Positions 31 to 14,860 of a DNA stretch of 42,837 nucleotides are shown here, piece by piece. A model generated the notes under the pieces. The model was given only the letters and a program-made list of their open reading frames with translations. It ran no database searches and was not told where the DNA came from. The DNA comes from a bacterium (GTDB lineage: Bacteria > Bacteroidota > Ignavibacteria > UBA10030): the NCBI GenBank assembly GCA_043803945.1, contig JAZDJN010000062.1:1-42837 (forward strand). Direction: 5' to 3'. A program made the position numbers and the translations under genes. The first letter of the stretch is position 1, and each line of letters opens with the position of its first letter.

Positions 31-3000
31 ATTTCAATTCCACTCTGGTTCGACTGAATCCTGATTATAGCCTGGGTAAAGTGCAAACCTACACAATTTC
101 AATTCCACTCTGGTTCGACTGAATCGATGTATTTCTTTCCATGTCACAGGCAATCGGCGAAATTTCAATTCCACTCTGGTTCGACTGAATCGAGACCATT
201 GAACAATTAGCAGGAATTGATGAAGCCATTTCAATTCCACTCTGGTTCGACTGAATCCAACGTCAAATTTGACGCTCAGCTATGGGATGTGAAATTTCAA
301 TTCCACTCTGGTTCGACTGAATCGCAAGCCACCCACGATCGATGCGTCGTATACTATAGATTTCAATTCCACTCTGGTTCGACTGAATCGCGAATTTATC
401 GGAAGGAAACAAAATGAGATATAAAATTTCAATTCCACTCTGGTTCGACTGAATCCAAGGAGCAAAACATTTGAAGGAATCGCAGAAGCGAATTTCAATT
501 CCACTCTGGTTCGACTGAATCTAACGATACCTACCTCAAACTTCGCCTTGCTTGGTAATTTCAATTCCACTCTGGTTCGACTGAATCGGTGAACACTATA
601 ACACACCGCAAGACAGACAAGGCAATTTCAATTCCACTCTGGTTCGACTGAATCGTGATGCCTTGCCTTGCAGTTCCGCGCGTGACAGTATTTCAATTCC
701 ACTCTGGTTCGACTGAATCGACGGGAAACATTATTGGTTGACTCCACCGGAGTTGAATTTCAATTCCACTCTGGTTCGACTGAATCCCTGAAAATCGTTG
801 ACCTTTTTGCGTACGATCTCTAATTTCAATTCCACTCTGGTTCGACTGAATCGGAAGCCTTCCATTTCATTCTCATCTTTACGATGTCATTTCAATTCCA
901 CTCTGGTTCGACTGAATCTCGAGAAAAGATCAAAGAAGGTGTCCGGGAAATCAAATTTCAATTCCACTCTGGTTCGACTGAATCTATGAGCTGCACAGAA
1001 CATCGTATGCGGAGCGCCAAATTTCAATTCCACTCTGGTTCGACTGAATCTTCTGAGAGACCATCGAAGTCAGGACGTGCAGGATGATTTCAATTCCACT
1101 CTGGTTCGACTGAATCCGTTTTTAAGCCGTATGTTACGTTCACATGATGGACAATTTCAATTCCACTCTGGTTCGACTGAATCTTGAATTATTGAGAGCG
1201 AGGCAATGACGCATAACATCATTTCAATTCCACTCTGGTTCGACTGAATCCTCGTTCTTAGCACCAAAAAGAACGGCGTAAACACTATTTCAATTCCACT
1301 CTGGTTCGACTGAATCGGAAAAGAAGTGAACGAACTCCAGCGAATACGATATATTTCAATTCCACTCTGGTTCGACTGAATCTTACGGAGTATATCCTGT
1401 CCATGCAACATCAAGGATATTTCAATTCCACTCTGGTTCGACTGAATCAGCATACTGTAGATAAATGAAAGTCGAAAAAAAAATATTTCAATTCCACTCT
1501 GGTTCGACTGAATCAGCGCCCTCTCTCCGTTGATGAAGTATATCAATACAATTTCAATTCCACTCTGGTTCGACTGAATCACGTATGTCAGGGCAAGGGA
1601 TTTAAGAACATCCATCATTTCAATTCCACTCTGGTTCGACTGAATCGACAAACATACATTCGTTCCAGTATCCGCAAAACTTATTTCAATTCCACTCTGG
1701 TTCGACTGAATCGAATGGCCGCCGCTGCATTTGAAGAGCCGATGAATCATTTCAATTCCACTCTGGTTCGACTGAATCGCCGAGAGTAGAGATGTTCGCA
1801 CGGCGACCAAGTGATTTCAATTCCACTCTGGTTCGACTGAATCGGGATTAGCCCCAGCCAGCACCGCAAGGCACTACCAATTTCAATTCCACTCTGGTTC
1901 GACTGAATCCGGACATTGTGATTGGGACTTCGAGGTGATAGCGAATTTCAATTCCACTCTGGTTCGACTGAATCTAGGACGCGACTGCACTCTCTACGAA
2001 GGACGTGCGGATTTCAATTCCACTATGGTTCGACTGAATCCGTTTTGCACGAAAGGAACAATTCAGCAGAAGTATTATTTCAATTCCACTATGGTTCGAC
2101 TGAATCCCGGTCGTTCCAGCAATACCTCGTATAAATATAGCCATTTCAATTCCACTATGGTTCGACTGAATCCGAAGTTGTATAAACGTTGATCGAATAA
2201 TAACCACCTATTTCAATTCCACTATGGTTCGACTGAATCCACAGTTCCAGAATGGATTATTTCACGGGATCACTTATTTCAATTCCACTATGGTTCGACT
2301 GAATCCACTCAAATGGCCTGGGCAGGTGCCGGCGCTGCTCAGTTTCAATTCCACTCTGGTTCGACTGAATCTCAGCAGAAGGGGCAAGTGTCAAAGCACA
2401 CTACCGAGTTTCAATTCCACTCTGGTTCGACTGAATCTTATGAAATAGATGATGTGAGCCTAACCGAAGCCACGTTTCAATTCCACTCTGGTTCGACTGA
2501 ATCGAGCCAGATGGCAATGGAGGGAAAGCATCATTCTCCGTTTCAATTCCACTCTGGTTCGACTGAATCTGTAACACACCCAAAGAACTTGTTCAAGATT
2601 GGCGCGTTTCAATTCCACTCTGGTTCGACTGAATCCACGATGTAATGAATTCTTTCTGAACGGCAATTTCAGTTTCAATTCCACTCTGGTTCGACTGAAT
2701 CGAATTCTTTTCCCGATGTTCGACGGGTGTTTCTCAAGTTTCAATTCCACTCTGGTTCGACTGAATCCTGCGGGCGTAGGATCGAATCCAGGCAGGGGAG
2801 CTAGTTTCAATTCCACTCTGGTTCGACTGAATCCGATCTTCGGAGTATTGTTAGTCGTCGTTTTGGTTGCGTTTCAATTCCACTCTGGTTCGACTGAATC
2901 GAATGAAAACCTTCATGAAAATATTCATTCTTTTGAGTTTCAATTCCACTCTGGTTCGACTGAATCAATCATGTTCTACGCAACAACACCATATTCATAT

Positions 3001-5476
3001 TTGTTTCAATTCCACTCTGGTTCGACTGAATCGAACAGTTACTTATTCAGGTGGTTCAATACTTATGAGTTTCAATTCCACTCTGGTTCGACTGAATCCA
3101 GCGACAGTAGAGGTTGCTGCTTCGTTAAGTCCGGTTTCAATTCCACTCTGGTTCGACTGAATCGCAAGGATCGAGATTAAAGTCACAAGAAACACAAATG
3201 TTTCAATTCCACTCTGGTTCGACTGAATCTTCTGCGGGTATTATTACAGCAGTGCAATTTGTAGGGTTTCAATTCCACTCTGGTTCGACTGAATCAGGTA
3301 ACGATTGACGATTCAGTAAAAGTGACGTATCGTTTCAATTCCACTCTGGTTCGACTGAATCATGTTCTCATAGTGCTGATACTGTTGCTCGTAACCGGTT
3401 TCAATTCCACTCTGGTTCGACTGAATCCGATGGCGATATAACTGAGACCTCATTCGATGCCTGGTTTCAATTCCACTCTGGTTCGACTGAATCGAGGATA
3501 GTAAACACATACAGTGGAATTGCTGACAAGTTTCAATTCCAATCTGGTTCGACTGAATCCCGTATAAGCCGTTACGACTAACTTATCTGAGCTTGGTTTC
3601 AATTCCACTCTGGTTCGACTGAATCGGGATTTTGTCCGATCGGTCAAGAGATTGTTTATACGTTTCAATTCCACTCTGGTTCGACTGAATCGGTTCAGAC
3701 TCGTGCGAAACATCTCACGAGTGCAATGTTTCAATTCCACTCTGGTTCGACTGAATCTACAGCATACACATTGCCCGTTGTAGATTCTGTCGCGTTTCAA
3801 TTCCACTCTGGTTCGACTGAATCGCTAAACTTCACAAGGTCATCTTTGCCTAACATCATGTTTCAATTCCACTCTGGTTCGACTGAATCATTGCTTCTTG
3901 ATATGGAGCACCGTTGACTGATACAGTTTCAATTCCACTCTGGTTCGACTGAATCACTTCGGTGTCGAAGGCGAGTATGCTGTTCTTGTTAGTTTCAATT
4001 CCACTCTGGTTCGACTGAATCCTGAGTGACGCAAGCATTGATTATCTCTGTGAGAAGTTTCAATTCCACTCTGGTTCGACTGAATCCATCCAATCAAATT
4101 TGCCTACGATATCTAATGCACAGTTTCAATTCCACTCTGGTTCGACTGAATCTTTGTATTGTTTTATCTTCAATAGATTGAGTCACCTGTTTCAATTCCA
4201 CTCTGGTTCGACTGAATCTCCGTTAATAGACCATCTCACATTAATTGTACAATCGTTTCAATTCCACTCTGGTTCGACTGAATCGGAGGATTTCGGTATA
4301 GATACTGTATCCCATATCGTGTTTCAATTCCACTCTGGTTCGACTGAATCCCGCCCCAAAGGCATTGACCGTCGTGGCCGTCGCAGTTTCAATTCCACTC
4401 TGGTTCGACTGAATCGTAGAACCGATAATCCAATTCGACAGATTTTGAGCTGGTTTCAATTCCACTCTGGTTCGACTGAATCAAACATTTGAGCATCCAG
4501 CCACCTTTCCCGAATTATGTTTCAATTCCACTCTGGTTCGACTGAATCTATATTCGTGATACTGCCTGTATTTCTTTGCTTCGTAGTTTCAATTCCACTC
4601 TGGTTCGACTGAATCTGATGCTCGCTGATAGTTCTGCGTTGACTACTTTCCGTTTCAATTCCACTCTGGTTCGACTGAATCTGTATCTCTTCTAAAGCAT
4701 TAGCCTGACCCTTTGCAGTTTCAATTCCACTCTGGTTCGACTGAATCTACTTTTTAACGAGAGGAATGTATTTTGTGGATGTTGTTTCAATTCCACTCTG
4801 GTTCGACTGAATCAGGGATTTCTGGGCAAGTTCAGAGTTGTCACAAGATGTTTCAATTCCACTCTGGTTCGACTGAATCATCTGTTCTATATACATTTGG
4901 AACGCCCGCTACAGGGTTTCAATTCCACTCTGGTTCGACTGAATCAATAAAAATTCAACTGAGCCTGACATCGTTAAGGTAGTTTCAATTCCACTCTGGT
5001 TCGACTGAATCCAAAAATGTGTTACTGAATCGAGGATACTTATTTACGTTTCAATTCCACTCTGGTTCGACTGAATCGCGCACAAGCCACAAGTGACATT
5101 TTTGTCGTCAAACCGTTTCAATTCCACTCTGGTTCGACTGAATCCCACACTCGTAACATTCGAGAGTAGAGAAATATCGAGGTTTCAATTCCACTCTGGT
5201 TCGACTGAATCTTGTATCTCTTCTAAAGCATTAGCCTGACCCTTTGCAGTTTCAATTCCACTCTGGTTCGACTGAATCAGTCAAGGATAAAGACCGTTGA
5301 GCCATCTATTCTCAGTTTCAATTCCACTCTGGTTCGACTGAATCGAGATCGGATCGTTTTATGGTGGGACACTTTGGCACGTTTCAATTCCACTCTGGTT
5401 CGACTGAATCACCAGCGTGTCAATCGAAACAACCTGCTTTGCAATCGTTTCAATTCCACTCTGGTTCGACTGAATC
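31..5476 (-). CRISPR. CRISPR array, 83 repeats / 82 internal spacers by manual count; 30-nt repeat, crRNA sense GATTCAGTCGAACCAGAGTGGAATTGAAA(C/T); spacers about 35-37 nt; probably continues beyond the left edge
   Basis: + strand RTTTCAATTCCACTCTGGTTCGACTGAATC recurs every ~66 nt from 31 to 5447. The ATTGAAAC/T 3' end on the minus strand is typical of Cas6-processed type I-B/III repeats. Adjacent to cas2. Confidence 0.99.
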
Positions 5477-5576: not shown

Positions 5577-5840
5577 TTACAACACGGTCTCGCTTCCTCC
5601 TTTTTCTGTTCCTATGATCTTCTTTTCCATGCGCGATTCGTCCTCAAATTGATAAATTATTACCGAGTCTTTCTCTAGATTGATCTTCTTCTTCAATCCT
5701 ATTTCCATCTCCTTATACTTTCCCTCAGTCAACCCCCCTTCGAATACACTGTTTTGCACCCAATTCAGATATCCGCGTAAATACTTCAGCACTTTTACGA
5801 CACGTTTTTCTTCAATATCATACACCACTATCACATACAT
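5577..5840 (-). CDS. cas2: CRISPR-associated endoribonuclease Cas2
   Basis: 87 aa, MYVIVVYDI...WVQNSVFEG...DSVIIY Cas2 signature. Confidence 0.98.
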   Translation of the reverse strand: MYVIVVYDIEEKRVVKVLKYLRGYLNWVQNSVFEGGLTEGKYKEMEIGLKKKINLEKDSVIIYQFEDESRMEKKIIGTEKGGSETVL

Positions 5841-5862: not shown

Positions 5863-5906
5863 GAAGGTCACCTTCGGCTGTGATCTATCTAGAGAAGGTG
5901 ACCTTC
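5863..5906. repeat. REP-like inverted doublet GAAGGTCACCTTC / GAAGGTGACCTTC in the cas1-cas2 gap
   Basis: 13-mers at 5863-5875 and 5894-5906 are exact reverse complements, each itself palindromic, 18 nt apart. Confidence 0.85.
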
Positions 5907-5908
5907 TA

Positions 5909-7060
5909 TTACCACCACGCCCGAAATGCTTTGTACTCTTCGCCGGAAGTTATATGGCGTACTAACTTGTATGCTTCCAACCGAATCAAATGACGGTACG
6001 AAACATTTCTGCCTAATGCACGGTGCTTGATGGTCGTCTTCAACCGCTCGTCGTATTCCTGTACAATAATTTTCCTCCCCGACTCTTCCAAATAGCAGCA
6101 ATTCAATTCCGCCTTAAAATGCTTTTCCTGAATTTGCTTTGCATTCAACAACCGAAAGATCATTCGATCCGCCAACAATGGCTTAAATATTTCAGCCAAA
6201 TCTAAAGCCAATGAATAGCGTCGTTCACCAGGTCCGTGCAAATAACTTACTGTCGGTTCCAGGTGAGTATGATAGATTTCGCTCAACACCGTGGAATATA
6301 CCAAACCGTTAGCAAACGAAATGAGTGCATTGATCGCATTATCAGGTGGATGTTTCACCCTTTTATCCAGCGCAAATTCCTGCCCCACAATTTGACCCCA
6401 ACAATTATAATAACGGTCCCGTATATTACCTTCCACTCCCATCAATTCTTTGGTCGTATCAGTGCGTGCAATGCCATCCCGTAGGTTTTCTATCTCTTCA
6501 ATCTCCGCTGTAAAGTCTATCGACTTCTCTTCCGTTCCTTTCGATGGCTTCGAATAGTATTGTAGGTTTTTGACAATGTTGTATGATGCTGCATCTATGA
6601 ACTCCCGCGCAATCATCAACCGCCTGTGTGTATCAAGATACGCCCTCACCTGCTCCACGACGGTGAACCCCGACGGCAAGTAGTCACGCGGAATGAAGCT
6701 GCCTGCATAATGTCCGTAATAATTAAACAGGTGCAGCGGAATATGATGCTGAGACAGGAAATTGAAGAATTTGCTGTTGTAATCCATCTCACCGAAACAA
6801 TAGAACGCTTCAATATCCTGCACAGGCAATGGCTTACGTGTTACTCTTCCGGTGTCCGGGTTTTTTTCACTCTCTTCCGTAAAGCCGGCAAGAATCTCTT
6901 CATCAATACCGGGATCGATGTCAGTGGAAATATCAGATGGCGGATTTCGGATAGCAGATTCTTCTTGGGGGTTAGCAGGTTTTGACACAGGTTCAAAGAA
7001 GATGGTATTATCTTTTCTTCTCAACCTGCCGGATGACATTATGTAATAAGGTCGTTTCAT
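5909..7060 (-). CDS. cas1: CRISPR-associated endonuclease Cas1 (type I-B style) with an acidic N-terminal insertion
   Basis: GRLRRKDNT, LMGVEG, NALISFAN, SYLH, LALDLAEIFKP motifs and FRAWW end. Confidence 0.98.
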   Translation of the reverse strand: MKRPYYIMSSGRLRRKDNTIFFEPVSKPANPQEESAIRNPPSDISTDIDPGIDEEILAGFTEESEKNPDTGRVTRKPLPVQDIEAFYCFGEMDYNSKFFNFLSQHHIPLHLFNYYGHYAGSFIPRDYLPSGFTVVEQVRAYLDTHRRLMIAREFIDAASYNIVKNLQYYSKPSKGTEEKSIDFTAEIEEIENLRDGIARTDTTKELMGVEGNIRDRYYNCWGQIVGQEFALDKRVKHPPDNAINALISFANGLVYSTVLSEIYHTHLEPTVSYLHGPGERRYSLALDLAEIFKPLLADRMIFRLLNAKQIQEKHFKAELNCCYLEESGRKIIVQEYDERLKTTIKHRALGRNVSYRHLIRLEAYKLVRHITSGEEYKAFRAWW

Positions 7061-7066
7061 TTAAAT

Positions 7067-7162
7067 CGGATAGCAGATATCAAATAACAGATGACAAAAA
7101 ACAGATGACAGATGACGGATGACAAATAACAAACGACAAATGACAAATAAATAATAGCAAAT
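7067..7162 (+). repeat. Degenerate heptamer tandem array (CAGATGA / CAAATAA-like)
   Basis: CGGATAG CAGATAT CAAATAA CAGATGA ... CAGATGA CGGATGA CAAATAA CAAACGA CAAATGA visible directly. Confidence 0.85.
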
Positions 7163-7173
7163 TGAATTCATAA

Positions 7174-7539
7174 TCATATAGAACGGCTGAGAAATGTTAT
7201 AAATCCGGCTGTTTGATTTATGATCGAGACACTGAGAGTGAATGCCTCCTCAAATTCGGATTGTGAGATATATTGCAGATCGAGTGCAACATAGAGTTGA
7301 CTTCTCAATTCTCCGACAGAACCTTTTGCATGATACAGGAAAGCGATGAACTCCTTTTTCGTGTGTCGTTCGTAACCCTCGGCGATATTAGACATCACGG
7401 AAACCGCTGATCGCTGCATCTGATCTTTCAGACCGTAATCGGAAGACAATTTTCCTTTTGCCGTTAATCTATAGATTATCGATGTAAGCTTCCGTGCATC
7501 CTGCCAGACAGGCATATCTTCAAATCGTTTAAACTTCAT
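7174..7539 (-). CDS. Four-helix-bundle protein (23S rRNA intervening-sequence protein family)
   Basis: 121 aa with FEDMPVWQ, LKDQMQRSAVSVMSNIAEGYER and AKGSVGELRSQL family motifs. Confidence 0.93.
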   Translation of the reverse strand: MKFKRFEDMPVWQDARKLTSIIYRLTAKGKLSSDYGLKDQMQRSAVSVMSNIAEGYERHTKKEFIAFLYHAKGSVGELRSQLYVALDLQYISQSEFEEAFTLSVSIINQTAGFITFLSRSI

Positions 7540-7552
7540 TTTGTTCCTTTTT

Positions 7553-7687
7553 ATTATCAGTCTTTCGCAATCTGTTATTCGCTATTAGCATTCTGCTTTT
7601 GTTTTCTGCTATCCGCTATTTGCTATCTGTCATTTTACTTATACGCTATCTGTCATATGCAATCCGTTATTCGTTATCTGCCATTTT
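7553..7687 (-). repeat. Degenerate heptamer array, inverted relative to 7067-7162
   Basis: + strand reads TCTGCTA TCCGCTA TTTGCTA TCTGTCA..., i.e. CAGATAG / CGGATAG / CAAATAG units on the minus strand. Confidence 0.85.
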
Positions 7688-7689
7688 AT

Positions 7690-8202
7690 TTATACCCAGC
7701 AAAGCTCAAAATAACTGCACATCTTACAAAAGCGTCTCGATTTCTTTTCTGGTGCAGATGCGGACTCGACAACTTCTTCGATCTTTTTCAGCACTTCGAT
7801 TATTTCTTCTTCCGTTTGTTCGTTTAACTCTACAGATACCTTTTGTCTTAACTTCGGATAATCGAGTTCTCCTTTCAATCCCGACACTCCTTTTTGTTTG
7901 AGATACCATAAGTAATACAACACCTGCCACCGATGCGCTTCTTCAAGGCTGTCGGACTTCTTCACCTCGTGTAACACACCGTTCTTACTATCGATCCAAT
8001 CAATCACAATTGCGTTGTCAATCTCGATCTGTTTTTCTTTCCGTGCATAGCTTGATTCATCTATGAGCTTACCCAAGAGAACGGTATCAGACGTATGCTC
8101 CATAACCAAACCACGCGAGAATAGCCACAGTTTACGCTTGCACACAAAATAATAATTTAAATGTGTGCCGGATATATTGTGCCTGAAGGTTTCCTTCATC
8201 AT
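7690..8202 (-). CDS. cas4: CRISPR-associated exonuclease Cas4
   Basis: YYFVCKRKLWLF, IDW, HEVKKS, QVLYYL and C-terminal CKMCSYFELC Fe-S cysteines. Confidence 0.97.
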   Translation of the reverse strand: MMKETFRHNISGTHLNYYFVCKRKLWLFSRGLVMEHTSDTVLLGKLIDESSYARKEKQIEIDNAIVIDWIDSKNGVLHEVKKSDSLEEAHRWQVLYYLWYLKQKGVSGLKGELDYPKLRQKVSVELNEQTEEEIIEVLKKIEEVVESASAPEKKSRRFCKMCSYFELCWV

Positions 8203-8394
8203 AGGTTTAGTCAGAAAGAAGGAAACCTTCTACATAAGGTAACACTCTTTTCCAGTAATCTTTCTCTGCCCGCTCATCTTTCAACACCTGCTGCACAAAT
8301 TCTATATAATCCTCGCCCAAATCAGCAAAAGGTTTCCTTCCGCTTGTTAAAGGCTTCCTTCTGTTAGGAATAACCTTAGTTGAAGGAAGCCTTT
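8185..8394. repeat. Cluster of REP-like palindromes overlapping the cas4 start and the RAYT 3' end
   Basis: GAAGGTTTCCTTC 8185-8197 / GAAGGAAACCTTC 8218-8230 (reverse complements); AAAGGTTTCCTTC 8328-8340; AAAGGCTTCCTTC 8349-8361 / GAAGGAAGCCTTT 8382-8394 (reverse complements). Confidence 0.85.
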
Positions 8395-8830
8395 TACCCA
8401 GGTACTCTACAAAGTTCGAAAACTTCCACTCCTCCGGTTCCCGCACTAATCCCGCCCTCACCGGATTCAAATGAATATAACACGCCACGTCCTGCACGGC
8501 ATCTTCCGGAACAGACTTATAACGAAATGGACCCTGAAACAAATGCCCGATATGCCCATACTTTAAATTGTATCGCTTTGCGGCAGATGTCGCCAACGCA
8601 CCCATCATATCCGACAAACAACCGCCCTGTTTCTGCAGAGCAAGGATGTGGTAATGATTCGGCATCAACGCGTACGCTGGCACAAGGACAGAATATTTAA
8701 CGGCAAGTGATTTCATCTTCCTAATAAACGCTTCATAATCCGATGCATCGGCAAAGATACGCTCTTTATCGTTCCCACGGTTATATACATGGTAAAACCG
8801 ATCATCTTCTATTTTTTCTTCTCTGTTCAT
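8207..8830 (-). CDS. REP-associated tyrosine transposase (RAYT / TnpA-REP, Y1 HUH family) inside the cas operon
   Basis: YHVYNRG, HUH motif LMPNHYHIL, GHLFQGPF, catalytic-Tyr motif YIHLNPVRAGLV, WKFSN; flanked by palindromic doublets. Confidence 0.93.
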   Translation of the reverse strand: MNREEKIEDDRFYHVYNRGNDKERIFADASDYEAFIRKMKSLAVKYSVLVPAYALMPNHYHILALQKQGGCLSDMMGALATSAAKRYNLKYGHIGHLFQGPFRYKSVPEDAVQDVACYIHLNPVRAGLVREPEEWKFSNFVEYLGKRLPSTKVIPNRRKPLTSGRKPFADLGEDYIEFVQQVLKDERAEKDYWKRVLPYVEGFLLSD

Positions 8831-8852
8831 ATCTTTTATAGAAGGTGTAGCG

Positions 8853-8900
8853 GAAGGTTACCTTCTGCTTATTCGTGCTTAGTTGAAGGTAACCTTCAAC
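8853..8900. repeat. REP-like inverted doublet between cas7 and the RAYT
   Basis: GAAGGTTACCTTC 8853-8865 (preceded by GTAGCG) and GAAGGTAACCTTC 8885-8897, which extends to the palindrome GTTGAAGGT-A-ACCTTCAAC at 8882-8900. Confidence 0.88.
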
Positions 8901-8927
8901 CGAGGGACGAGAAATTCTTTAGCTATG

Positions 8928-9986
8928 TTATACTTGTCTTTCATAGTCGTATGCCAAAAGCATTTCCTTCAATTTGTTCTCTGCGTCATCCAATGCATTT
9001 GCCGTTCCATGCACACCTTGGATATATCCGTCACAAGGAAGAGCTATGAACAAATCCGTTCCAACTGTATCGTCAATAATAGGAATTGCATGTGGTTTCT
9101 CTGTTTCCTCTGAAAGTTTAGCACGTATTGCGCTTGCTACTTTGTTTGCGTTGTCGCTGATAGCAATAGCAAGCGTTTCCATTAGACTAAACGTGCGTGA
9201 TTGATTACTGGTAATTCTCCAATTAAGAATGCCTTTGGCAAGAGCATTAATAATTTCATTTCTTTTCTTTTTGGGACATATCAGACAACTACCGAAAGCA
9301 TTCTTAGATTCTTTCCAACCATTATCTCGGAGTTCTTTTCCAATATCATCCGTTATTTCACGTTCGTGTTTATTCAATGACACAGAAAAGAGCGTACGTA
9401 TATCTATTGCAATGTCGTACACAAATAGTCCTGCAGCTCTTGTGTTATCTTGAATAAAATTCCTGCGTGTAAGAGATATTTTTTTGTCTTCAAGAAATTT
9501 ATTGATCTCTACTTCTGACAGTTCTTTTCCGTTTGCATCACGCACTTTTACGGGATGAATATCGGGATTGCTGCTGCGATCAAATGTTAAATTCTCTCTT
9601 GCGACACTGCATAAAAGAGGATGTAATGCACGCATAGCGGAGATAGATAATGGGCTTCGTCTCTTAACTGGTGTTTCTCCAGCTTGAGCTCTCATCCAAC
9701 CTCCAAGCAATTGGTCTGTATATTTAGGATCACAAGGTGACCAAGGTTCTCCCTCACCCAAGCCGCCTTTTTCTTTTATTATTTTATTGAAAGTTATCGG
9801 TGCTTGTTGCTCTCCTAACAATTCCAAGATAGAATCTAATGCTGAACGCTTAACTTGTTGACCACTTGAATAAGGAACATACTTCCCAAATTGACTATCA
9901 TAGTATGTCTTTTGTCCTTCTTGGACACAAAACACTGTATGTTCGGCATGTCGAAGCCCGCGAAGATAAATAAATGGTGATCCCAT
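8928..9986 (-). CDS. cas7: Cas7 backbone subunit (Bacteroidota-type variant)
   Basis: 352 aa with PYSSGQQVKRS, DQLLGGWM and KRRSPLSIS, which resemble Cas7 RAMP motifs; position in the operon. Confidence 0.85.
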   Translation of the reverse strand: MGSPFIYLRGLRHAEHTVFCVQEGQKTYYDSQFGKYVPYSSGQQVKRSALDSILELLGEQQAPITFNKIIKEKGGLGEGEPWSPCDPKYTDQLLGGWMRAQAGETPVKRRSPLSISAMRALHPLLCSVARENLTFDRSSNPDIHPVKVRDANGKELSEVEINKFLEDKKISLTRRNFIQDNTRAAGLFVYDIAIDIRTLFSVSLNKHEREITDDIGKELRDNGWKESKNAFGSCLICPKKKRNEIINALAKGILNWRITSNQSRTFSLMETLAIAISDNANKVASAIRAKLSEETEKPHAIPIIDDTVGTDLFIALPCDGYIQGVHGTANALDDAENKLKEMLLAYDYERQV

Positions 9987-10019
9987 GTTGGTTCTCCTTA
10001 TTTAAAGTTGTTTTTACTA

Positions 10020-10316
10020 TCAATTGGGTAATGCATATTTGAAACGCATCAGCGTTACAAAAAGCGGCACATTATCGACTGCAATATTCTCCATTAACTC
10101 ATGAACAAGAGTATTACATACTTCCCCCATCGTTGTTGGCTCTTCTTCCACAAGTTGAGTAAGCCGATCAATCAACTCTTTGCGATTTCGGGAAGACAAT
10201 AGCTCTTTTATTTCGTTATCACGCTTCACAGTTCCCTTCCTTCCTCCTTTTTCATACTTTCGAAACGCTTGAGCGGCTTTTTCTGCTAAACCAAGAAGAT
10301 TTTTGTTATTTAACAT
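10020..10316 (-). CDS. cas11: Probable Cas11 small subunit translated from an internal in-frame start in cas8 (98 aa, MLNNKNLL...)
   Basis: In-frame ATG at 10316 preceded by GGTGATC (10326-10320), complementary to the extended 16S anti-SD. Internal Cas11 translation is established for types I-B, I-C and I-D. Confidence 0.55.
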   Translation of the reverse strand: MLNNKNLLGLAEKAAQAFRKYEKGGRKGTVKRDNEIKELLSSRNRKELIDRLTQLVEEEPTTMGEVCNTLVHELMENIAVDNVPLFVTLMRFKYALPN

Positions 10317-11366
10317 AGCGATCACCCATGTAATGTAAATTGAATAGTTAATTTTAGATTTTTCATCATCCTTAAGTTTTGGCATCTCATTTGAACTGGA
10401 TCTACCAGGCATATATTTCCACAAATCTTTTGGTTCTATAGCTTTTAAACCAATTGTTCCTTGTTCGCATGCACGTGAAAAAGGATATTGAGTTTCATAC
10501 AAAGCAACCATTTGCTTTATGCCCACAGAATCACTCTTTTTAAATATTTTATCATAGAATTCCCAAAACTTATTTACCTCCGGTAAATTAAGATTAATAA
10601 AACCAAGGGTTACGTATTTCTGTTTATCATATATATATCTCGAACTAAAAATAGTAACGTTCTCTTTCGGAAATATGCTCGACAATAAAAACAACATCTT
10701 AATCCAGCTCTGCTGTTTTAGAGCATAGTTAGCTTTTCGTTTTTCGCTGGTTTCTTTTTCTACATATTCATCCAAGAGAAATTTCTTAACTATTTTGTCT
10801 TTATTAAAAGTATGGTCAAGCCAAACACTATTCCATAGATCAATCTCATTTGGTTTTAAATCCAGCACTTTTGAGTTCAAATGTTTTCGATATTCAGACC
10901 AACCTGAATAAATCGTCCAAAGCAACTTTTCATTGTTCATATACCATACTTGTTTCCCCTCTACTTCTATCCCAAAGCCAGCCCCAATCCATGAAGAATA
11001 TATACTTTCTTTGTCCATAGGAAGAGTTAAAGATGATACTTGTCCTGAAGTATCAAAAAGGTCATTAGCAGCCGGGAACCCTATTGCAAAGCTACTATCT
11101 GGAACATCTTCTTCGATTTTTTTATTTAATTTTTCAAGTTTACGTTTTTGCTCATCTTCAAATGTTTTTATTCCCTTTCTTTCTTTAGCAGGAAGTTTCT
11201 GAACAAAAGGAGAGTTAACAATCCATTTAAAATACTTCTTATGGTTATAGAATTCTTCAAAAACTTCTTTTTTAAAGAATAATTCTGCAGATAATCTTTT
11301 ATTTTTCTTTTTATTATATATTTCTAAAAATCGCTGCCCAATAAACGATATGTACATAGCTTTCAC
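10020..11366 (-). CDS. cas8: Probable Cas8 large subunit (divergent, AT-rich)
   Basis: 448-aa Lys-rich protein between cas3 and cas7 with a helical C-terminus; assigned mainly by position. Confidence 0.7.
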   Translation of the reverse strand: MKAMYISFIGQRFLEIYNKKKNKRLSAELFFKKEVFEEFYNHKKYFKWIVNSPFVQKLPAKERKGIKTFEDEQKRKLEKLNKKIEEDVPDSSFAIGFPAANDLFDTSGQVSSLTLPMDKESIYSSWIGAGFGIEVEGKQVWYMNNEKLLWTIYSGWSEYRKHLNSKVLDLKPNEIDLWNSVWLDHTFNKDKIVKKFLLDEYVEKETSEKRKANYALKQQSWIKMLFLLSSIFPKENVTIFSSRYIYDKQKYVTLGFINLNLPEVNKFWEFYDKIFKKSDSVGIKQMVALYETQYPFSRACEQGTIGLKAIEPKDLWKYMPGRSSSNEMPKLKDDEKSKINYSIYITWVIAMLNNKNLLGLAEKAAQAFRKYEKGGRKGTVKRDNEIKELLSSRNRKELIDRLTQLVEEEPTTMGEVCNTLVHELMENIAVDNVPLFVTLMRFKYALPN

Positions 11367-11369
11367 CTT

Positions 11370-13505
11370 TTAGATTACAGTATCAATTTCTTTCCATTCT
11401 AAACCTACCGACGGACTATACAATTCGTCATGGACAATAATTGGGGACGTTCCATATTTTGAATATCCATAATTTGTGAACTTACGGAACCTTGCCGTTC
11501 GTGGAATCGGTATTTCCAGACTGATTCGTTGTTCGCTGTTTCCCTTTTCATATTGCTCTAAATCTGAATATCGAATCGCTGTTGCTGATTCAATGTTCAA
11601 TGCTTCCATTAGAACAGAAGAGGGGAAATGGCAAAGTTCCGTTAAAAGAAACTCATCCCTTTCCCATACTAAATGAGTATTAATGGAAATCTCTTTGAGA
11701 GTTGGAAACACTTCATCAATTATCTTTTGCAAATCACGCTCGTGTAATACTTCGTTATCCGGTAACTGCGCAAAACTTCGTTCTAGCAACTCTTGTGCAT
11801 AGGGCAAACATGCTTTGCTCTCATCAGGCGGTTCGATAACATATACTGGCTTTAATATCCTGTTCCGAACACTCTCCTCGGTTCTACGCCTGTTGATGCG
11901 TCCGAACCGTTGAATGAGACTGTCAAACGGAGCACACTCGGTTATCATCACATCAAAGCTAATGTCCAAGCTTACTTCCACTACTTGCGTTGAAACGACA
12001 ATGCAGGCTTTTGAAGAGCAATCGAATTTTTCCCGAAGTTCTTTTTCTAATTCTGCCCTATCCTGCCGTCGGAATCGGCTATGAAGAAGCATTTGCGGCA
12101 TATCGGGGAAAAGTTCACAGCATTCCTTGAAGCGTTTCTGTGCGGCATCTACTCTATTGCACACGATGAGGACTTTTTTGTTCTCTTGTAGAGCTTGTAG
12201 AATAATGCTCCGTGTTTCATCAAATGAAGAAATCTTATGAACAATGTGTCTATCGAACGTAACAAGCGTATTTTGAGGCAATGACACGGTGTATGTTTGT
12301 TTCTTCCCTCCAAGAAGTTTTAATATTTTCTTTTGCAACACCAACGGCATTGTTGCACTGCCGACATGAACTCGGCAACGCAGTTTTAACAACGCTTTGA
12401 TGATTTCTAAAACCATAGACTGCGCGATCTCGGAGTACGAATGAATTTCATCCAGGATGACATCATTCCCCATAATATCAACAGCAAGCGCTTCGAAACC
12501 ACGCGTTCCACAAATCAATGATGCCAATTGATGAGGTGTTAAGACTTTAATGGCGGCACCGACTTTATCTTGTAAAACTTTTTCTTCATACGATTCGCTT
12601 CCTTTCACTACCAATCTTGACGATGCATGAAGCACTCGTATTTCAGCTTGATTCGGAAGCTGCTGCCGAAATCGTTCGTACATAGCATTGATGGACGCTT
12701 GAAAAGGTAATGTATAAAAGACCCTGCTACTGCAACGGCGCATAAGAAAATCTGTTTTCCCCGATCCCGTTGGTGCAACAACAAGAGTATGCGGTATCTT
12801 ATCGTCGGCAGAAAGAAGGGATAAAGGAAATAGAGTATTCGACCGATTATCAAATGCTGAGAGATCGGGAGTTTGGAATATCGTTGAAATACGGACATTT
12901 GTTTTTTCGTTCAATGCAGAGGCAAAATGGTCTGCCCCAACAAGCACGCCTTTCCATTTCGACCAACCAAGTGATTTTTTTGAGCAATATTCAATAGTAT
13001 ACCGATATGCCCTCAATGCTTCATCTTTCGAAATGCTTCGCGTAGAAATACCAACATCGGACAGAATAGCAAGAGCTACAGACGACCATTCTTCCCAAGG
13101 ATCAACATGCCGTTCAAATATCTCATCGCTTCCTTCTATATTTTCTAAATCCAAGATTCCCTGTTCACGCGCATCCTGGCGAATGGAACGATGATGAGCA
13201 ACGATCATATCAACAAGTGCATTCCAATCTTTTTGCGGGAATAATGGAAGGAATAAAAGTGATGCAATTTCATGCCGGAAAGTAATGCCAAAATTATCGT
13301 TCCTATTATTTTTCAACTTTCGCTGGAAATCCGGATGCGACTTGCCAACATCATGCAAAAGCCCTCCGAGCCGTGCAAGCCTTTTATCCAATCCTGCCGA
13401 TTCGGCAACTCTTTCTGCTACAGAAGCAACATGACGTAAATGATCGGTTAAAAGTGTTCCACCATTGTTCACACTCTTAGCGTATATGTCTTGAAGCGGA
13501 TTCAT
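11370..13505 (-). CDS. cas3: Cas3 HD nuclease-helicase
   Basis: HD domain (LLHDVGK, AHH, GADH), Walker A APTGSGKT, DEIH, SAT, STQVVEVSLDI, QRFGRINR. Confidence 0.97.
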   Translation of the reverse strand: MNPLQDIYAKSVNNGGTLLTDHLRHVASVAERVAESAGLDKRLARLGGLLHDVGKSHPDFQRKLKNNRNDNFGITFRHEIASLLFLPLFPQKDWNALVDMIVAHHRSIRQDAREQGILDLENIEGSDEIFERHVDPWEEWSSVALAILSDVGISTRSISKDEALRAYRYTIEYCSKKSLGWSKWKGVLVGADHFASALNEKTNVRISTIFQTPDLSAFDNRSNTLFPLSLLSADDKIPHTLVVAPTGSGKTDFLMRRCSSRVFYTLPFQASINAMYERFRQQLPNQAEIRVLHASSRLVVKGSESYEEKVLQDKVGAAIKVLTPHQLASLICGTRGFEALAVDIMGNDVILDEIHSYSEIAQSMVLEIIKALLKLRCRVHVGSATMPLVLQKKILKLLGGKKQTYTVSLPQNTLVTFDRHIVHKISSFDETRSIILQALQENKKVLIVCNRVDAAQKRFKECCELFPDMPQMLLHSRFRRQDRAELEKELREKFDCSSKACIVVSTQVVEVSLDISFDVMITECAPFDSLIQRFGRINRRRTEESVRNRILKPVYVIEPPDESKACLPYAQELLERSFAQLPDNEVLHERDLQKIIDEVFPTLKEISINTHLVWERDEFLLTELCHFPSSVLMEALNIESATAIRYSDLEQYEKGNSEQRISLEIPIPRTARFRKFTNYGYSKYGTSPIIVHDELYSPSVGLEWKEIDTVI

Positions 13506-14125
13506 CGAGTAGATATCTGTGATGCTAATGGGTTATTACCAACAATATGAAGCCATCCATACATCGGTTTGCTGTTATCGAAACGATTAAAGCCGACAAT
13601 GAAGGATTGCTTAGTTTTTCCAAAGCGTAATTCAAAGCCGTTAAAACCATTATCCGGTTCGTCAAATTTTTCTTCGTTTATTTTTAAGATGTGTTCGTTT
13701 GTCGGAAATTCGGCAGGCAACAGAACATCTTCATTGCGGCACAAACAAATGTGCTGCTGTATTGCCCGTTCGGCAAATTCAAGTTTGGATAAAGCTATGT
13801 AAAGAATCGGATTCAGCAGAACACCACGTATTAAAATTGACCGTGGCCTATCTATAACAACAATATTCTCTTTCTTTTTAACGGTAATATTTATACCACG
13901 CGGCTGTGTTTGTTCTTGTTGTTTTGATAGTCCGATATAAGTCAAACGATGTCGCACAATTCTTGGATCGTATTTTTTTTGTTCCAGCAATTCTGGGAAC
14001 AGTTTCTTTTCTATTCCTTCAATTATCGAAGGTGTTAGAAAGTTTTGGCTATAGGTTTCACTATCCCTCACAGCTGTCCAAGGTTTAATGAAACCGAATG
14101 GTCCTGAATACTTCACGATATACAT
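13502..14125 (-). CDS. cas5: Cas5 family RAMP
   Basis: N-terminal YSGPFGFIKPW...LTPSIIEG Cas5-like motif; 4-nt overlap with the cas3 start. Confidence 0.75.
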   Translation of the reverse strand: MYIVKYSGPFGFIKPWTAVRDSETYSQNFLTPSIIEGIEKKLFPELLEQKKYDPRIVRHRLTYIGLSKQQEQTQPRGINITVKKKENIVVIDRPRSILIRGVLLNPILYIALSKLEFAERAIQQHICLCRNEDVLLPAEFPTNEHILKINEEKFDEPDNGFNGFELRFGKTKQSFIVGFNRFDNSKPMYGWLHIVGNNPLASQISTR

Positions 14126-14149
14126 TTTTCGTCTCCTTCTGGCATGGGC

Positions 14150-14195
14150 GAAGGTTACCTTCCACTATGTTAAGCTATGCGAGAAGGTAACCTTC
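14150..14195. repeat. REP-like inverted doublet in the cas6-cas5 gap
   Basis: GAAGGTTACCTTC 14150-14162 and GAAGGTAACCTTC 14183-14195, 20 nt apart; identical 13-mers to the pair next to the RAYT. Confidence 0.88.
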
Positions 14196-14203
14196 TGGCA
14201 AAT

Positions 14204-14860
14204 TTAGCAGAGCGCTCCAAAACCGCTTCCTGTTGAATGTCCGACTCCAACTTCCCAAGCAAATGCGACCGCCTCTGGTGTTCCTTCTATCATTACCGGG
14301 CAAACACTTGCTCTATTTTGAATACCTTTAATTGTGACAAGCCGTGTTTTACACTTTTCGTATGTCCTGTCAAAGAATACTTTTATCCCTTTGTTAACTA
14401 TTCCAGCTTTTTCCAATTTTGTTTTGAGCGTTGCCGTCAACACATCATCAACTCCAGAATCAGAAAACAGTAGATGCTTTATTCCTTGACCATCATATTT
14501 TTTTACAAGAACAGGTGTTGCGGTTAAAAATCTTTGATGTTCGCTGAATTTTGGTGTACCTACCATTTGTACATCGGTAATCCTCATACCGCAACAAACG
14601 TTTGGTTCCGAAAGAAGACCACTCATAACTTTTTTTGCCAGAGCCTCATTCCAGCAACTGATGAACCACTTTGCTCCTTTAGGAAAATTCAGCATGTCTT
14701 TTTCTTTTTTCCCTCCCGATAACCAGCTTAGAGAATAAAGACTGATGTCGTCATGTATTTCATTCGGACCAAGCCATTTATGAAATGCACCGATCAAAAA
14801 ATGCTGGTACTCAAAAGGTACAGGTTCAATATTCGGTGTTAAATTAAAATAGAGTCGCAT
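14204..14860 (-). CDS. cas6: Cas6 crRNA-processing endoribonuclease
   Basis: C-terminal Gly-rich loop GVGHSTGSGFG; SLYSLSWL; RBS AGGAG upstream. Confidence 0.96.
   Translation of the reverse strand: MRLYFNLTPNIEPVPFEYQHFLIGAFHKWLGPNEIHDDISLYSLSWLSGGKKEKDMLNFPKGAKWFISCWNEALAKKVMSGLLSEPNVCCGMRITDVQMVGTPKFSEHQRFLTATPVLVKKYDGQGIKHLLFSDSGVDDVLTATLKTKLEKAGIVNKGIKVFFDRTYEKCKTRLVTIKGIQNRASVCPVMIEGTPEAVAFAWEVGVGHSTGSGFGALC

Follow-up and report, generated by a model that had tools for sequence, protein, structure and literature searches.

A putative REPIN-RAYT element lodged in a type I-B cas operon of an Ignavibacteria bacterium, and the recurrence of Y1 transposase genes beside CRISPR adaptation genes

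REP-associated tyrosine transposases (RAYTs; REP, repetitive extragenic palindrome) and their hairpin repeats are widespread, and their benefit to the cell is still debated. CRISPR loci, for their part, gather ancillary genes whose roles are often found later. What, then, is a RAYT gene doing inside a cas operon? The question is raised by contig JAZDJN010000062.1 of an Ignavibacteria bacterium of the order UBA10030 (GenBank assembly GCA_043803945.1), of which a stretch of 42,837 nucleotides (nt; positions 1 to 42,837) was analysed and is called the window below. Here a RAYT-like gene belongs to a single tight minus-strand row, cas6-cas5-cas3-cas8-cas7-RAYT-cas4-four-helix-bundle gene-cas1-cas2, followed by a CRISPR array, and inverted pairs of a short palindrome (doublets) lie at several gene junctions. 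The sequence-only reading of this DNA had left two possibilities, a HUH module associated with CRISPR and a passenger that is tolerated. The second is favoured by the evidence, given the RAYT-free close contigs, the orthologous RAYT-free operons L168 and L174, the RAYT orthologues in genomes lacking Cas1, and the doublets between ordinary genes. Our preferred reading, to which we assign a probability of roughly 0.6, is that a complete type I-B cas operon has been colonised by a REPIN-RAYT element, and that this element is a co-transcribed selfish passenger with a marked tropism for adaptation modules.

The RAYT gene (8207..8830, minus strand) encodes 207 amino acids (aa). Its stop codon (TAA at 8209-8207) is separated from the cas4 ATG at 8202 by only 4 nt (ACCT), and both the catalytic motifs and the minus-strand reading agree with the earlier description of an intact, co-oriented HUH/Y1 gene that ends 4 nt before cas4. 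The HUH motif is HYH and the catalytic tyrosine motif YIHLNP, both invariant among 13 orthologues. The protein matches Pfam Y1_Tnp (33.2 bits against a cut-off of 23; E = 6.3e-8), and its sole NCBIfam match, REP_Tyr_transpos, scores 63.1 bits, below the equivalog cut-off of 80, so that it is best described as a diverged relative. A RAYT profile matches the solved structures 2XM3 (ISDra2 TnpA, the best match) and 4ER8 (Escherichia coli TnpA_REP), covering the catalytic domain of the latter in full. Only one copy of this RAYT clade is present in the genome, where the next best paralogue is 38% identical. By prediction, the gene encodes a single-strand DNA nuclease/transposase with a Y1 HUH fold, of the TnpA_REP kind. 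The C-terminal third of RAYT proteins reads through repeat arms, with "EGFL" recurring among the orthologues and "RKPF" in the window (8207-8400); because this terminus is translated through the arms, the open reading frame (ORF) has absorbed its own repeats. At orthologous RAYT loci, doublets likewise flank the gene and extend into its 3' part.

The 13-mer GAAGGNNNCCTTC occurs eight times in the window (5863, 5894, 8185, 8218, 8853, 8885, 14150, and 14183), where shuffling gives an expectation of 0.04 and none of 100 shuffles reached eight. All eight copies lie exactly where they had been reported and form four doublets: at the cas6/cas5 junction (14150..14195; centres TTA/TAA; fold −24.1 kcal/mol, z −4.3), between cas7 and the RAYT (8853..8897; TTA/TAA; −22.6 kcal/mol, z −4.9), across the RAYT stop and the cas4 start (8185..8230; TTT/AAA; −22.1 kcal/mol, z −5.0), and at the cas1/cas2 junction (5863..5906; TCA/TGA; spacer 18 nt; −22.5 kcal/mol, z −3.4), where related junctions are without it. 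A fifth, degenerate doublet lies inside the RAYT ORF (8349..8394; −25.6 kcal/mol, z −4.4) and reads AAAGGCTTCCTTC-N20-GAAGGAAGCCTTT, with the outermost G-C pair changed to A-T on both arms. The earlier statement that the 13-mer is found nowhere else in the window therefore stands for the exact form, with its eight copies, and had overlooked this fifth pair. All five doublets fold at −22 to −26 kcal/mol, with z from −3.4 to −5.0. Each 13-nt arm is itself palindromic, and the two arms are mutually reverse-complementary, including the three free centre bases (TTA/TAA, TTT/AAA, TCA/TGA, and CTT/AAG), so the arms can pair as a 13-bp stem around a loop of about 20 nt. In the hairpin at 8185..8230, both the RAYT stop codon and the cas4 ATG sit in the loop, and the first cas4 codons occupy the loop and the 3' arm.

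No terminator-like site was found at any window doublet, and promoter-like sites are in no excess (28 against 25.4 expected). The possibility that the doublets are intrinsic terminators or separate promoters was ruled out, as no copy is followed by a T-run and promoters are not in excess. With its orientation, its distance of 4 nt from cas4, and the lack of promoter excess or terminators at the doublets, the RAYT is plausibly co-transcribed with the cas operon. No likeness between the doublet and the CRISPR repeat was apparent when the two were read against each other.

The structure of the doublets was examined in 53 different copies with a 20-nt spacer, drawn from the window genome and related genomes and selected by the arm motif alone, not by complementarity between arms. 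Of the 24 pairs tested in the inter-arm helix, 17 have changed in a compensatory way, and none of 500 shuffles scored as high as the real alignment. For example, pair 4-49 is G-C in 38 sequences, A-U in 13, and unpaired in none; pair 11-42 is U-A in 28 and A-U in 18. Even the free centre triplets are paired in 49-52 of the 53 sequences. The alternatives of two local hairpins or a protein operator were rejected, since the inter-arm helix covaries and the local-hairpin model performed no better than shuffles (125/500). At one related locus with GAAGGTTTCCGTC...GACGGAAACCTTC, the local palindromes are destroyed and the long stem is retained. The covariation points to a REPIN-like hairpin with a 13-bp stem between the two arms, sharing the architecture of the REPIN, described in PMC3337134 as two inverted REPs that form one hairpin. 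As for the tetranucleotides typical of REPs, GTAG is present at 8847-8850 on the plus strand and GTAGAAGG begins at 8233 on the minus strand, both as first read. GTAG adjoins two window doublet copies, and the consensus of the 53 doublets has G-N2 before and N2-C after each arm instead of a GTAG or CGTC head.

Is the element a fixed part of the operon? The comparison drew on contigs of four peat RNA-library runs that resemble the window at 90-95%; they prove that forms of the operon exist, not that these are transcribed. Some join 8176 to 8928 with 30 nt between, and others join 8136 to 8939, in both cases skipping the RAYT and its two flanking doublets. In contigs of relatives, 14122 and 14204 are linked by 22 nt and the cas6/cas5 doublet is missing, and one contig joins 7061 to 7691, leading from cas4 directly to cas1 past the four-helix-bundle gene. 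The RAYT interior has no cover in any of the four runs; the contigs come from RAYT-free relatives. Because contigs 90-95% alike bridge these junctions directly, the RAYT, the doublets, and the four-helix-bundle gene appear to be recent, dispensable insertions, the last as a second inserted cassette. When the junctions were compared for a target site or target duplication, TGCCAGAAGG was found on both sides of the inserted 56 nt at cas6/cas5, and nothing comparable at the other two junctions. The gene order is the same in L168 and L174, two orthologous I-B operons without the RAYT, whose junctions are mostly 23-31 nt long (a few overlap) and contain no intact doublet; in L174 one solitary arm persists at cas7/cas4, and a doublet in another place has decayed. 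From these comparisons, the RAYT element is probably a recent and dispensable insertion, not a core immune component. A lack of both gene and palindromes in related cas operons was one of three conditions that the sequence-only reading had named together as refuting its proposal. L168 and L174 are without the RAYT and intact doublets, and the close contigs are without the RAYT and the doublets at the junctions they bridge; a further related operon, L124, has both.

The relatives of the RAYT gene point to mobility. In a tree of 31 Y1 proteins, its sister (support 95/91) is a RAYT of another genus that belongs to a type I-C operon and has cas7 and cas4 as its neighbours there, and cas-linked and unlinked RAYTs are interleaved through the clade. 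Close RAYT relatives are linked to cas genes, as the sequence-only reading had expected: of the 15 clade members, 8 are found inside cas loci or no more than a few kb away, and the other seven are in genomes without Cas1. Within I-B operons the RAYT occupies different positions, namely, cas7|cas4 (window and L124), cas4|cas1 (L033 and L217), and upstream of cas4 (L171). Taken together, these placements suggest that the RAYT is mobile. The L124 RAYT is 44% identical to that of the window, and the Cas proteins of the two operons are 44.5-80% identical (59, 68, 70, 44.5, 80, 68, 77, and 65.5% along the operon). In L124, too, the cas4 start codon sits in a hairpin loop. This locus carries five extra genes at its cas7-cas4-cas1 junctions (8740-12065), an unknown ORF, a DUF1841 gene, the RAYT, and an MNT-HEPN pair. 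All but the last pair lie between cas7 and cas4 and are each bracketed by doublets. The MNT-HEPN pair lies between cas4 and cas1 both in L124 and in the RAYT-free L167.

Where else do the doublets occur? The exact doublet has six occurrences in the 5.54-Mb genome, corresponding to five loci because two contig ends overlap by 141 nt, and four of the five loci are in the window operon. The overlap, between the ends of contigs C65 and C67, is exact over 141 bases, in opposite orientation, and contains the doublet; the assembly graph branches there. With one mismatch per arm allowed, we found eight doublet loci, against none in a reversed-genome control. A chance origin was rejected by this control (0 loci) and by the shuffles of the window (0/100), and for the Y1 genes by their excess at Cas1 loci given below. 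Seven of the eight loci are in or at the edge of CRISPR-cas loci, so the proposed genome-wide scan did find the cas-locus enrichment. Five of these are in the window operon. One, degenerate and of the GAAGG type, is at the RT-cas1/cas2 junction (RT, reverse transcriptase) of a type III locus on contig C7, and one borders a type I-E locus (Cse1, Cas3, Cas6e, and Cas7e) on contig C87 on its upstream side. The eighth adjoins a giant secreted protein and has no cas context.

Among 277 genomes of the order, a RAYT orthologue (E ≤ 1e-40) was found in 12 and the doublet in 48, at 1-17 copies each, with zero hits of the reversed-pattern control in all genomes listed. All 12 genomes with a RAYT orthologue have the doublet, compared with 36 of the 265 genomes without one. 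In other genomes, some of which have as many as 17 copies, ordinary and unrelated housekeeping genes flank the doublets. The annotated ones gave no sign of marking defence loci in other genomes and lie among secretion-system cargo, a TonB receptor, and redox genes. The doublet spacers in the window genome are mutually unrelated; those of genome G097 (17 doublets; L198 and L199) are clearly akin and TCCnAAGCnAGGACGnAGCT-like, as expected from recent copying. Cas1 is absent from 7 of the 12 genomes with a RAYT orthologue, and no cas remnants were detected beside these seven orthologues by tblastn with the I-B, I-C, and type III proteins of the window genome, a search that other types would escape.

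Y1 genes at cas loci are not peculiar to this operon. Cas1 was found in 58 of the 277 genomes, and we took up to 8 kb, as far as the contigs reached, on each side of the 72 Cas1 places outside the window genome, plus the three from the window genome. Two neighbouring places fell into a single stretch, leaving 74 stretches that total 840 kb. A Y1 gene was detected by tblastn in 20 of these 74 stretches; given the 250 Y1 matches to Pfam across the 58 genomes (200 Mb), the expectation is 1.05. This count is inflated by shared descent, and we estimate at least eight separate placements. All 20 genes are co-oriented with the cas genes and mostly adjoin cas4 or cas1; they span types I-B, I-C, II, and III, and their catalytic motifs are intact in all cas-linked copies. 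Linkage of Y1 genes to cas genes is above chance in several lineages. The 20 loci contain at least four Y1 lineages: the window RAYT clade (I-B and I-C), a lineage between cas4 and cas1 of I-C (eight loci in three families, 59-82% identical), a lineage before RT-cas1 (type III) and before cas4 of I-B, and a lineage between cas9 and cas1 (type II, with Cas9 domains found). The I-C-linked family is not confined to cas loci, with 8 of 30 members flanked by cas4/cas1.

All three Cas1 loci of the window genome carry a Y1 gene. The I-C operon on contig C56 (L128, 1773-10539) has its own between cas4 and cas1, accompanied by a GTAG-headed palindrome (GGTAGGACATTCATTCTTGAATGTCCTACC and variants) at cas5/cas3, cas8/cas7, cas7/cas4, cas4/Y1, and Y1/cas1. 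GAATGTCCTAC has five copies in the genome, four of them in this locus, and a strict GGACA..TGTCC palindrome has four, three of them there. This hairpin type is present in six of the eight I-C loci with that Y1, and there is no clear case in 26 I-C loci without it. With another Y1 family and another hairpin, the C56 locus is an independent repeat of the pattern. Some 2 kb upstream of the C56 cas3 there is also a third Y1 gene, which is broken.

Among more distant RAYT relatives, cas matches were present at 14 of 80 genome loci, and 12 of the 14 are from another phylum, Candidatus Poribacteria. In 10 of these 12 the order is cas1-RAYT-(cas2)-cas4-array with intact motifs. The RAYT is kept between cas1 and cas2 across about 10 species-level genomes (L037-L054). 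It is flanked by another hairpin with a 13-bp stem and a 6-nt loop, present chromosome-wide in 39-170 copies per genome, which is an ordinary genome-wide REP population. In metagenomes, 1 of 80 RAYT loci was cas-linked, that of the closest relative; this is a weak figure, as most of these RAYTs are distant and only 26 of the 80 loci reach 8 kb. Across these sets, members do not lie mostly in cas loci (8/15 for the window clade, 8/30 for the I-C family, and 1/80 and 14/80 for distant RAYTs).

Under the preferred reading, a REPIN-RAYT element would have entered a clean I-B operon, to be read with the operon and having no promoter of its own. As the RAYT stop and cas4 start lie in a hairpin loop, translation of the RAYT would open this downstream hairpin for cas4. 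The enzyme would bind and cut folded single-stranded doublets and copy them into nearby permissive sites, which would mostly be short spacers between cas cistrons, and such copying would leave nearly all of the genome's copies in cas loci. The element is also one case of a wider, non-random pattern, as several unrelated Y1/RAYT lineages, each with its own hairpins, lodge co-oriented beside cas4/cas1 in different CRISPR types. The tropism likely arises because such sites tolerate small cassettes and because mobile cas loci carry the passenger along; a target preference of the element is perhaps a further reason. Several points weigh against this reading. A passenger alone offers no explanation for at least eight separate lodgings that are all beside cas4/cas1 and all co-oriented, nor for the presence of this doublet at two other cas loci of the genome, the type III locus and the edge of the I-E locus. 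The unrelated spacers of the window doublets are a poor fit to recent copying of one master unit, and no excision product, target site, or transcript was observed for the window element. The intact motifs and the 59-82% identity of the I-C Y1 across three families fit selection for activity, be it to the benefit of the element or of the host.

Three rival explanations were weighed. The RAYT may be an accessory of adaptation, a HUH nuclease that processes single-stranded or hairpin DNA (for example, from rolling-circle plasmids, single-stranded DNA phages, or conjugating DNA) for spacer capture by Cas4-Cas1-Cas2, with the doublets as docking or regulatory sites. The spacing of 4 nt to cas4 agrees with this, as does the placement of Y1 genes directly beside cas4/cas1 in I-B, I-C, II (cas9-Y1-cas1), and III (Y1-RT-cas1) loci, always on the adaptation side and never among the effector genes, at 20/74 against 1.05, and so do the 10 of 12 Poribacteria loci with cas1-RAYT-(cas2)-cas4-array and intact motifs. 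Nevertheless, relatives 90-95% alike and orthologous operons are without the RAYT, 54 of the 74 Cas1 loci have no Y1 gene, and Cas1 is lacking from seven of the 12 genomes in which a RAYT orthologue was found. Only 8 of the 30 members of the I-C-linked family are beside cas genes, distant RAYTs are cas-linked at 1/80 metagenome and 14/80 genome loci, and the Poribacteria hairpins, at 39-170 per genome, behave like an ordinary REP system. We therefore consider this function unlikely for the window RAYT. The broader version, in which certain Y1/RAYT lineages have been repeatedly recruited as CRISPR adaptation accessories (I-B, I-C, II, and III, in Ignavibacteria-like bacteria and Poribacteria), processing DNA or controlling adaptation genes via planted hairpins, is similarly doubtful.

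An effect at the RNA level, in which the 13-bp stem-loops would set segment stability or translational coupling and so tune the ratio of Cas6, Cascade, Cas4/Cas1, and Cas2, with the RAYT supplying or maintaining them, is quite unlikely. REP elements can stabilise upstream mRNA, and all operon copies are strongly folding, lie at cistron junctions or gene ends, and lack a T-run, hence are no terminators; the cas4 start codon is in a hairpin loop in both the window and L124. However, close relatives and orthologous operons manage with junctions that are short and free of hairpins, in other places these doublets separate unrelated housekeeping genes, and the junctions are the only non-coding sites available. 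The covariation proves pairing but cannot separate DNA from RNA. Even less probable is cassette exchange, in which the doublets would be recombination or excision sites akin to integron attC hairpins and the RAYT would move genes and cas modules between them. Consistent with it are the unknown ORF, DUF1841 gene, and RAYT of L124, each bracketed by doublets between cas7 and cas4, the three different sites, listed above, that the RAYT takes among related operons, the sister RAYTs in I-B and I-C operons, and the 5' cas4 fragments duplicated at the junction in several I-C loci. Yet the identity of the Cas proteins to those of L124 does not change abruptly at the doublets, neither cas2 by itself nor the block from cas5 to cas7 makes a plausible cassette, the MNT-HEPN and four-helix-bundle cassettes have no exact or one-mismatch flanking doublets, and no circular or excised form was seen. 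For the earlier suggestion of "shuffling cas modules at REP sites", support is weak and indirect.

How does the putative element compare with known systems? It resembles the REPIN-RAYT systems of Pseudomonas and E. coli TnpA_REP with its REP/BIME (bacterial interspersed mosaic element) repeats in that its Y1 HUH gene is present once and bracketed by palindromic repeats of its own, in the pairing of two inverted units as one long hairpin, and in the co-occurrence of repeat family and enzyme clade across genomes. It differs in being low-copy, with 8 loci here and 1-17 in the order rather than a large dispersed extragenic population of tens to hundreds per genome. Each of its arms is palindromic, its spacers are unconserved within the genome, the GTAG head is present on some copies only, the gene is inside a cas operon with most copies in cas loci, and the NCBIfam equivalog cut-off is missed. 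With IS200/IS605 elements (ISDra2 TnpA, 2XM3) it shares a Y1 HUH transposase, hairpins on both sides, and a presumed single-strand DNA mechanism, but it has one copy, no tnpB, the same symmetric doublet on both sides in place of distinct left and right ends, and solo doublets without the gene. Several near-identical copies with distinct left and right subterminal hairpins, as in an IS200/IS605 insertion sequence proper, were not found. The MNT-HEPN and four-helix-bundle cassettes are also small co-oriented genes at cas7|cas4|cas1 junctions with variable presence among close relatives; in contrast to these, the RAYT brings a repeat family that spreads, and several unrelated Y1 lineages are placed alike. 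Tn7-like CRISPR-associated transposons (CASTs) and casposons use DDE or Cas1 enzymes, and their CRISPR parts serve transposition. Like these, the window has a transposase physically linked to CRISPR genes; unlike them, it places a Y1 enzyme within an immune operon that is otherwise complete, cas3 and a long array included, and there is no sign of the operon being part of the RAYT element.

Our full-text literature searches returned no report of Y1/RAYT genes in cas operons; supplementary tables lay outside these searches and may bear on this point. In the portions available, PMC5581495 only speculates on a CRISPR-like role of RAYTs, the sole match to "RAYT" in PMC5513706 is an author name, PMC12669027 and PMC10910872 have IS200 in their reference lists only, and PMC6006769 does not contain "CRISPR" or "cas" as whole words. 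The available main text of a survey of CRISPR-linked genes (10.1101/270033) does not contain IS200, pfam01797, or COG1943, and its supplementary tables may list such genes. A predicted hairpin-cutting single-strand DNA enzyme beside acquisition genes, always in their orientation, in four CRISPR types and two distant bacterial groups, offers a testable link between the RAYT and CRISPR fields. If the element is only a passenger, small selfish cassettes would land preferentially at the boundary between effector and adaptation genes, REPIN-like elements could persist as tiny, locally confined populations, and cas operons may ferry them between genomes. If the accessory explanation were true, this would be a cas-linked enzyme class absent from the literature searched. 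In either case, those who annotate or express cas operons from these lineages should expect such inserts and hairpins.

The genes of the window operon, all on the minus strand, were assigned as follows. The array (32..5476) has 83 repeats of about 30 nt, counted at no more than three mismatches. It is adjoined by cas2 (5577..5840; Pfam CRISPR_Cas2, 3.9e-23) and a type I-B cas1 (5909..7060; Pfam, 4.9e-85; TIGR03641, 438.7 bits against a cut-off of 304). A gene for a four-helix-bundle/23S rRNA intervening sequence protein (7174..7539; 23S_rRNA_IVP; Pfam, 9.9e-35) separates cas1 from cas4 (7690..8202; Pfam Cas_Cas4, 2.5e-57). Beyond the RAYT are a putative cas7 (8928..9986; 352 aa; a sub-threshold DevR/Cas7 match, TIGR01875; L124 counterpart 80% identical), a putative cas8 for the large subunit (10020..11366; 448 aa; no family match; 44.5%), cas3 with HD nuclease and helicase family matches (11370..13505), a putative cas5 (13502..14125; 207 aa; no family match; 68%), and cas6 (14204..14860; Pfam Cas_Cas6_C, 1.3e-7; TIGR01877, 75.3 bits, over the cut-off). 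A Cas1 of the HMARI kind with cas3, cas4, cas6, and an adjacent array of 83 repeats identifies type I-B. The gene names given by the sequence-only reading are borne out by profiles for cas6, cas3, cas4, cas1, and cas2, whereas those of cas5, cas8, and cas7 rest on position and conservation in related operons; it had not mentioned the four-helix-bundle gene (7539-7174) between cas4 and cas1. The order cas6-cas5-cas3-cas8-cas7 (8928-14860) departs from the textbook I-B arrangement, and three of these five proteins have no curated family match above cut-off. Around the four-helix-bundle gene (7061-7690), GACAGATAGC-like repeats lie upstream and inverted, heptad-like TGTCATCTGT-like copies downstream.

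Other loci provide further observations. The type III-like locus on C7 (L129, 9722-14762) has a SAVED-domain gene, a Y1-like gene, RT-Cas1, and cas2, and the Y1-like gene has a GTAGGTCGAC-type palindrome pair inside its ORF. The type I-E locus on C87 (L210, 1999-10721) lies outside the genome's three Pfam Cas1 matches. Upstream of it are sigma-70-like, unknown/HTH, and Peptidase_M78 (ImmA/IrrE-like) genes, a 54-aa Cas3-HD-like fragment, and the doublet; the same three-gene set with an adjoining doublet precedes the cas operons in L124 (I-B) and L032 (I-C). Finally, short duplicated 5' cas4 fragments lie upstream of the full cas4 in the I-C loci L121, L128, L132, L138, L139, L152, and L155, with or without a Y1 gene, and look like scars of repeated insertion or recombination at this junction.

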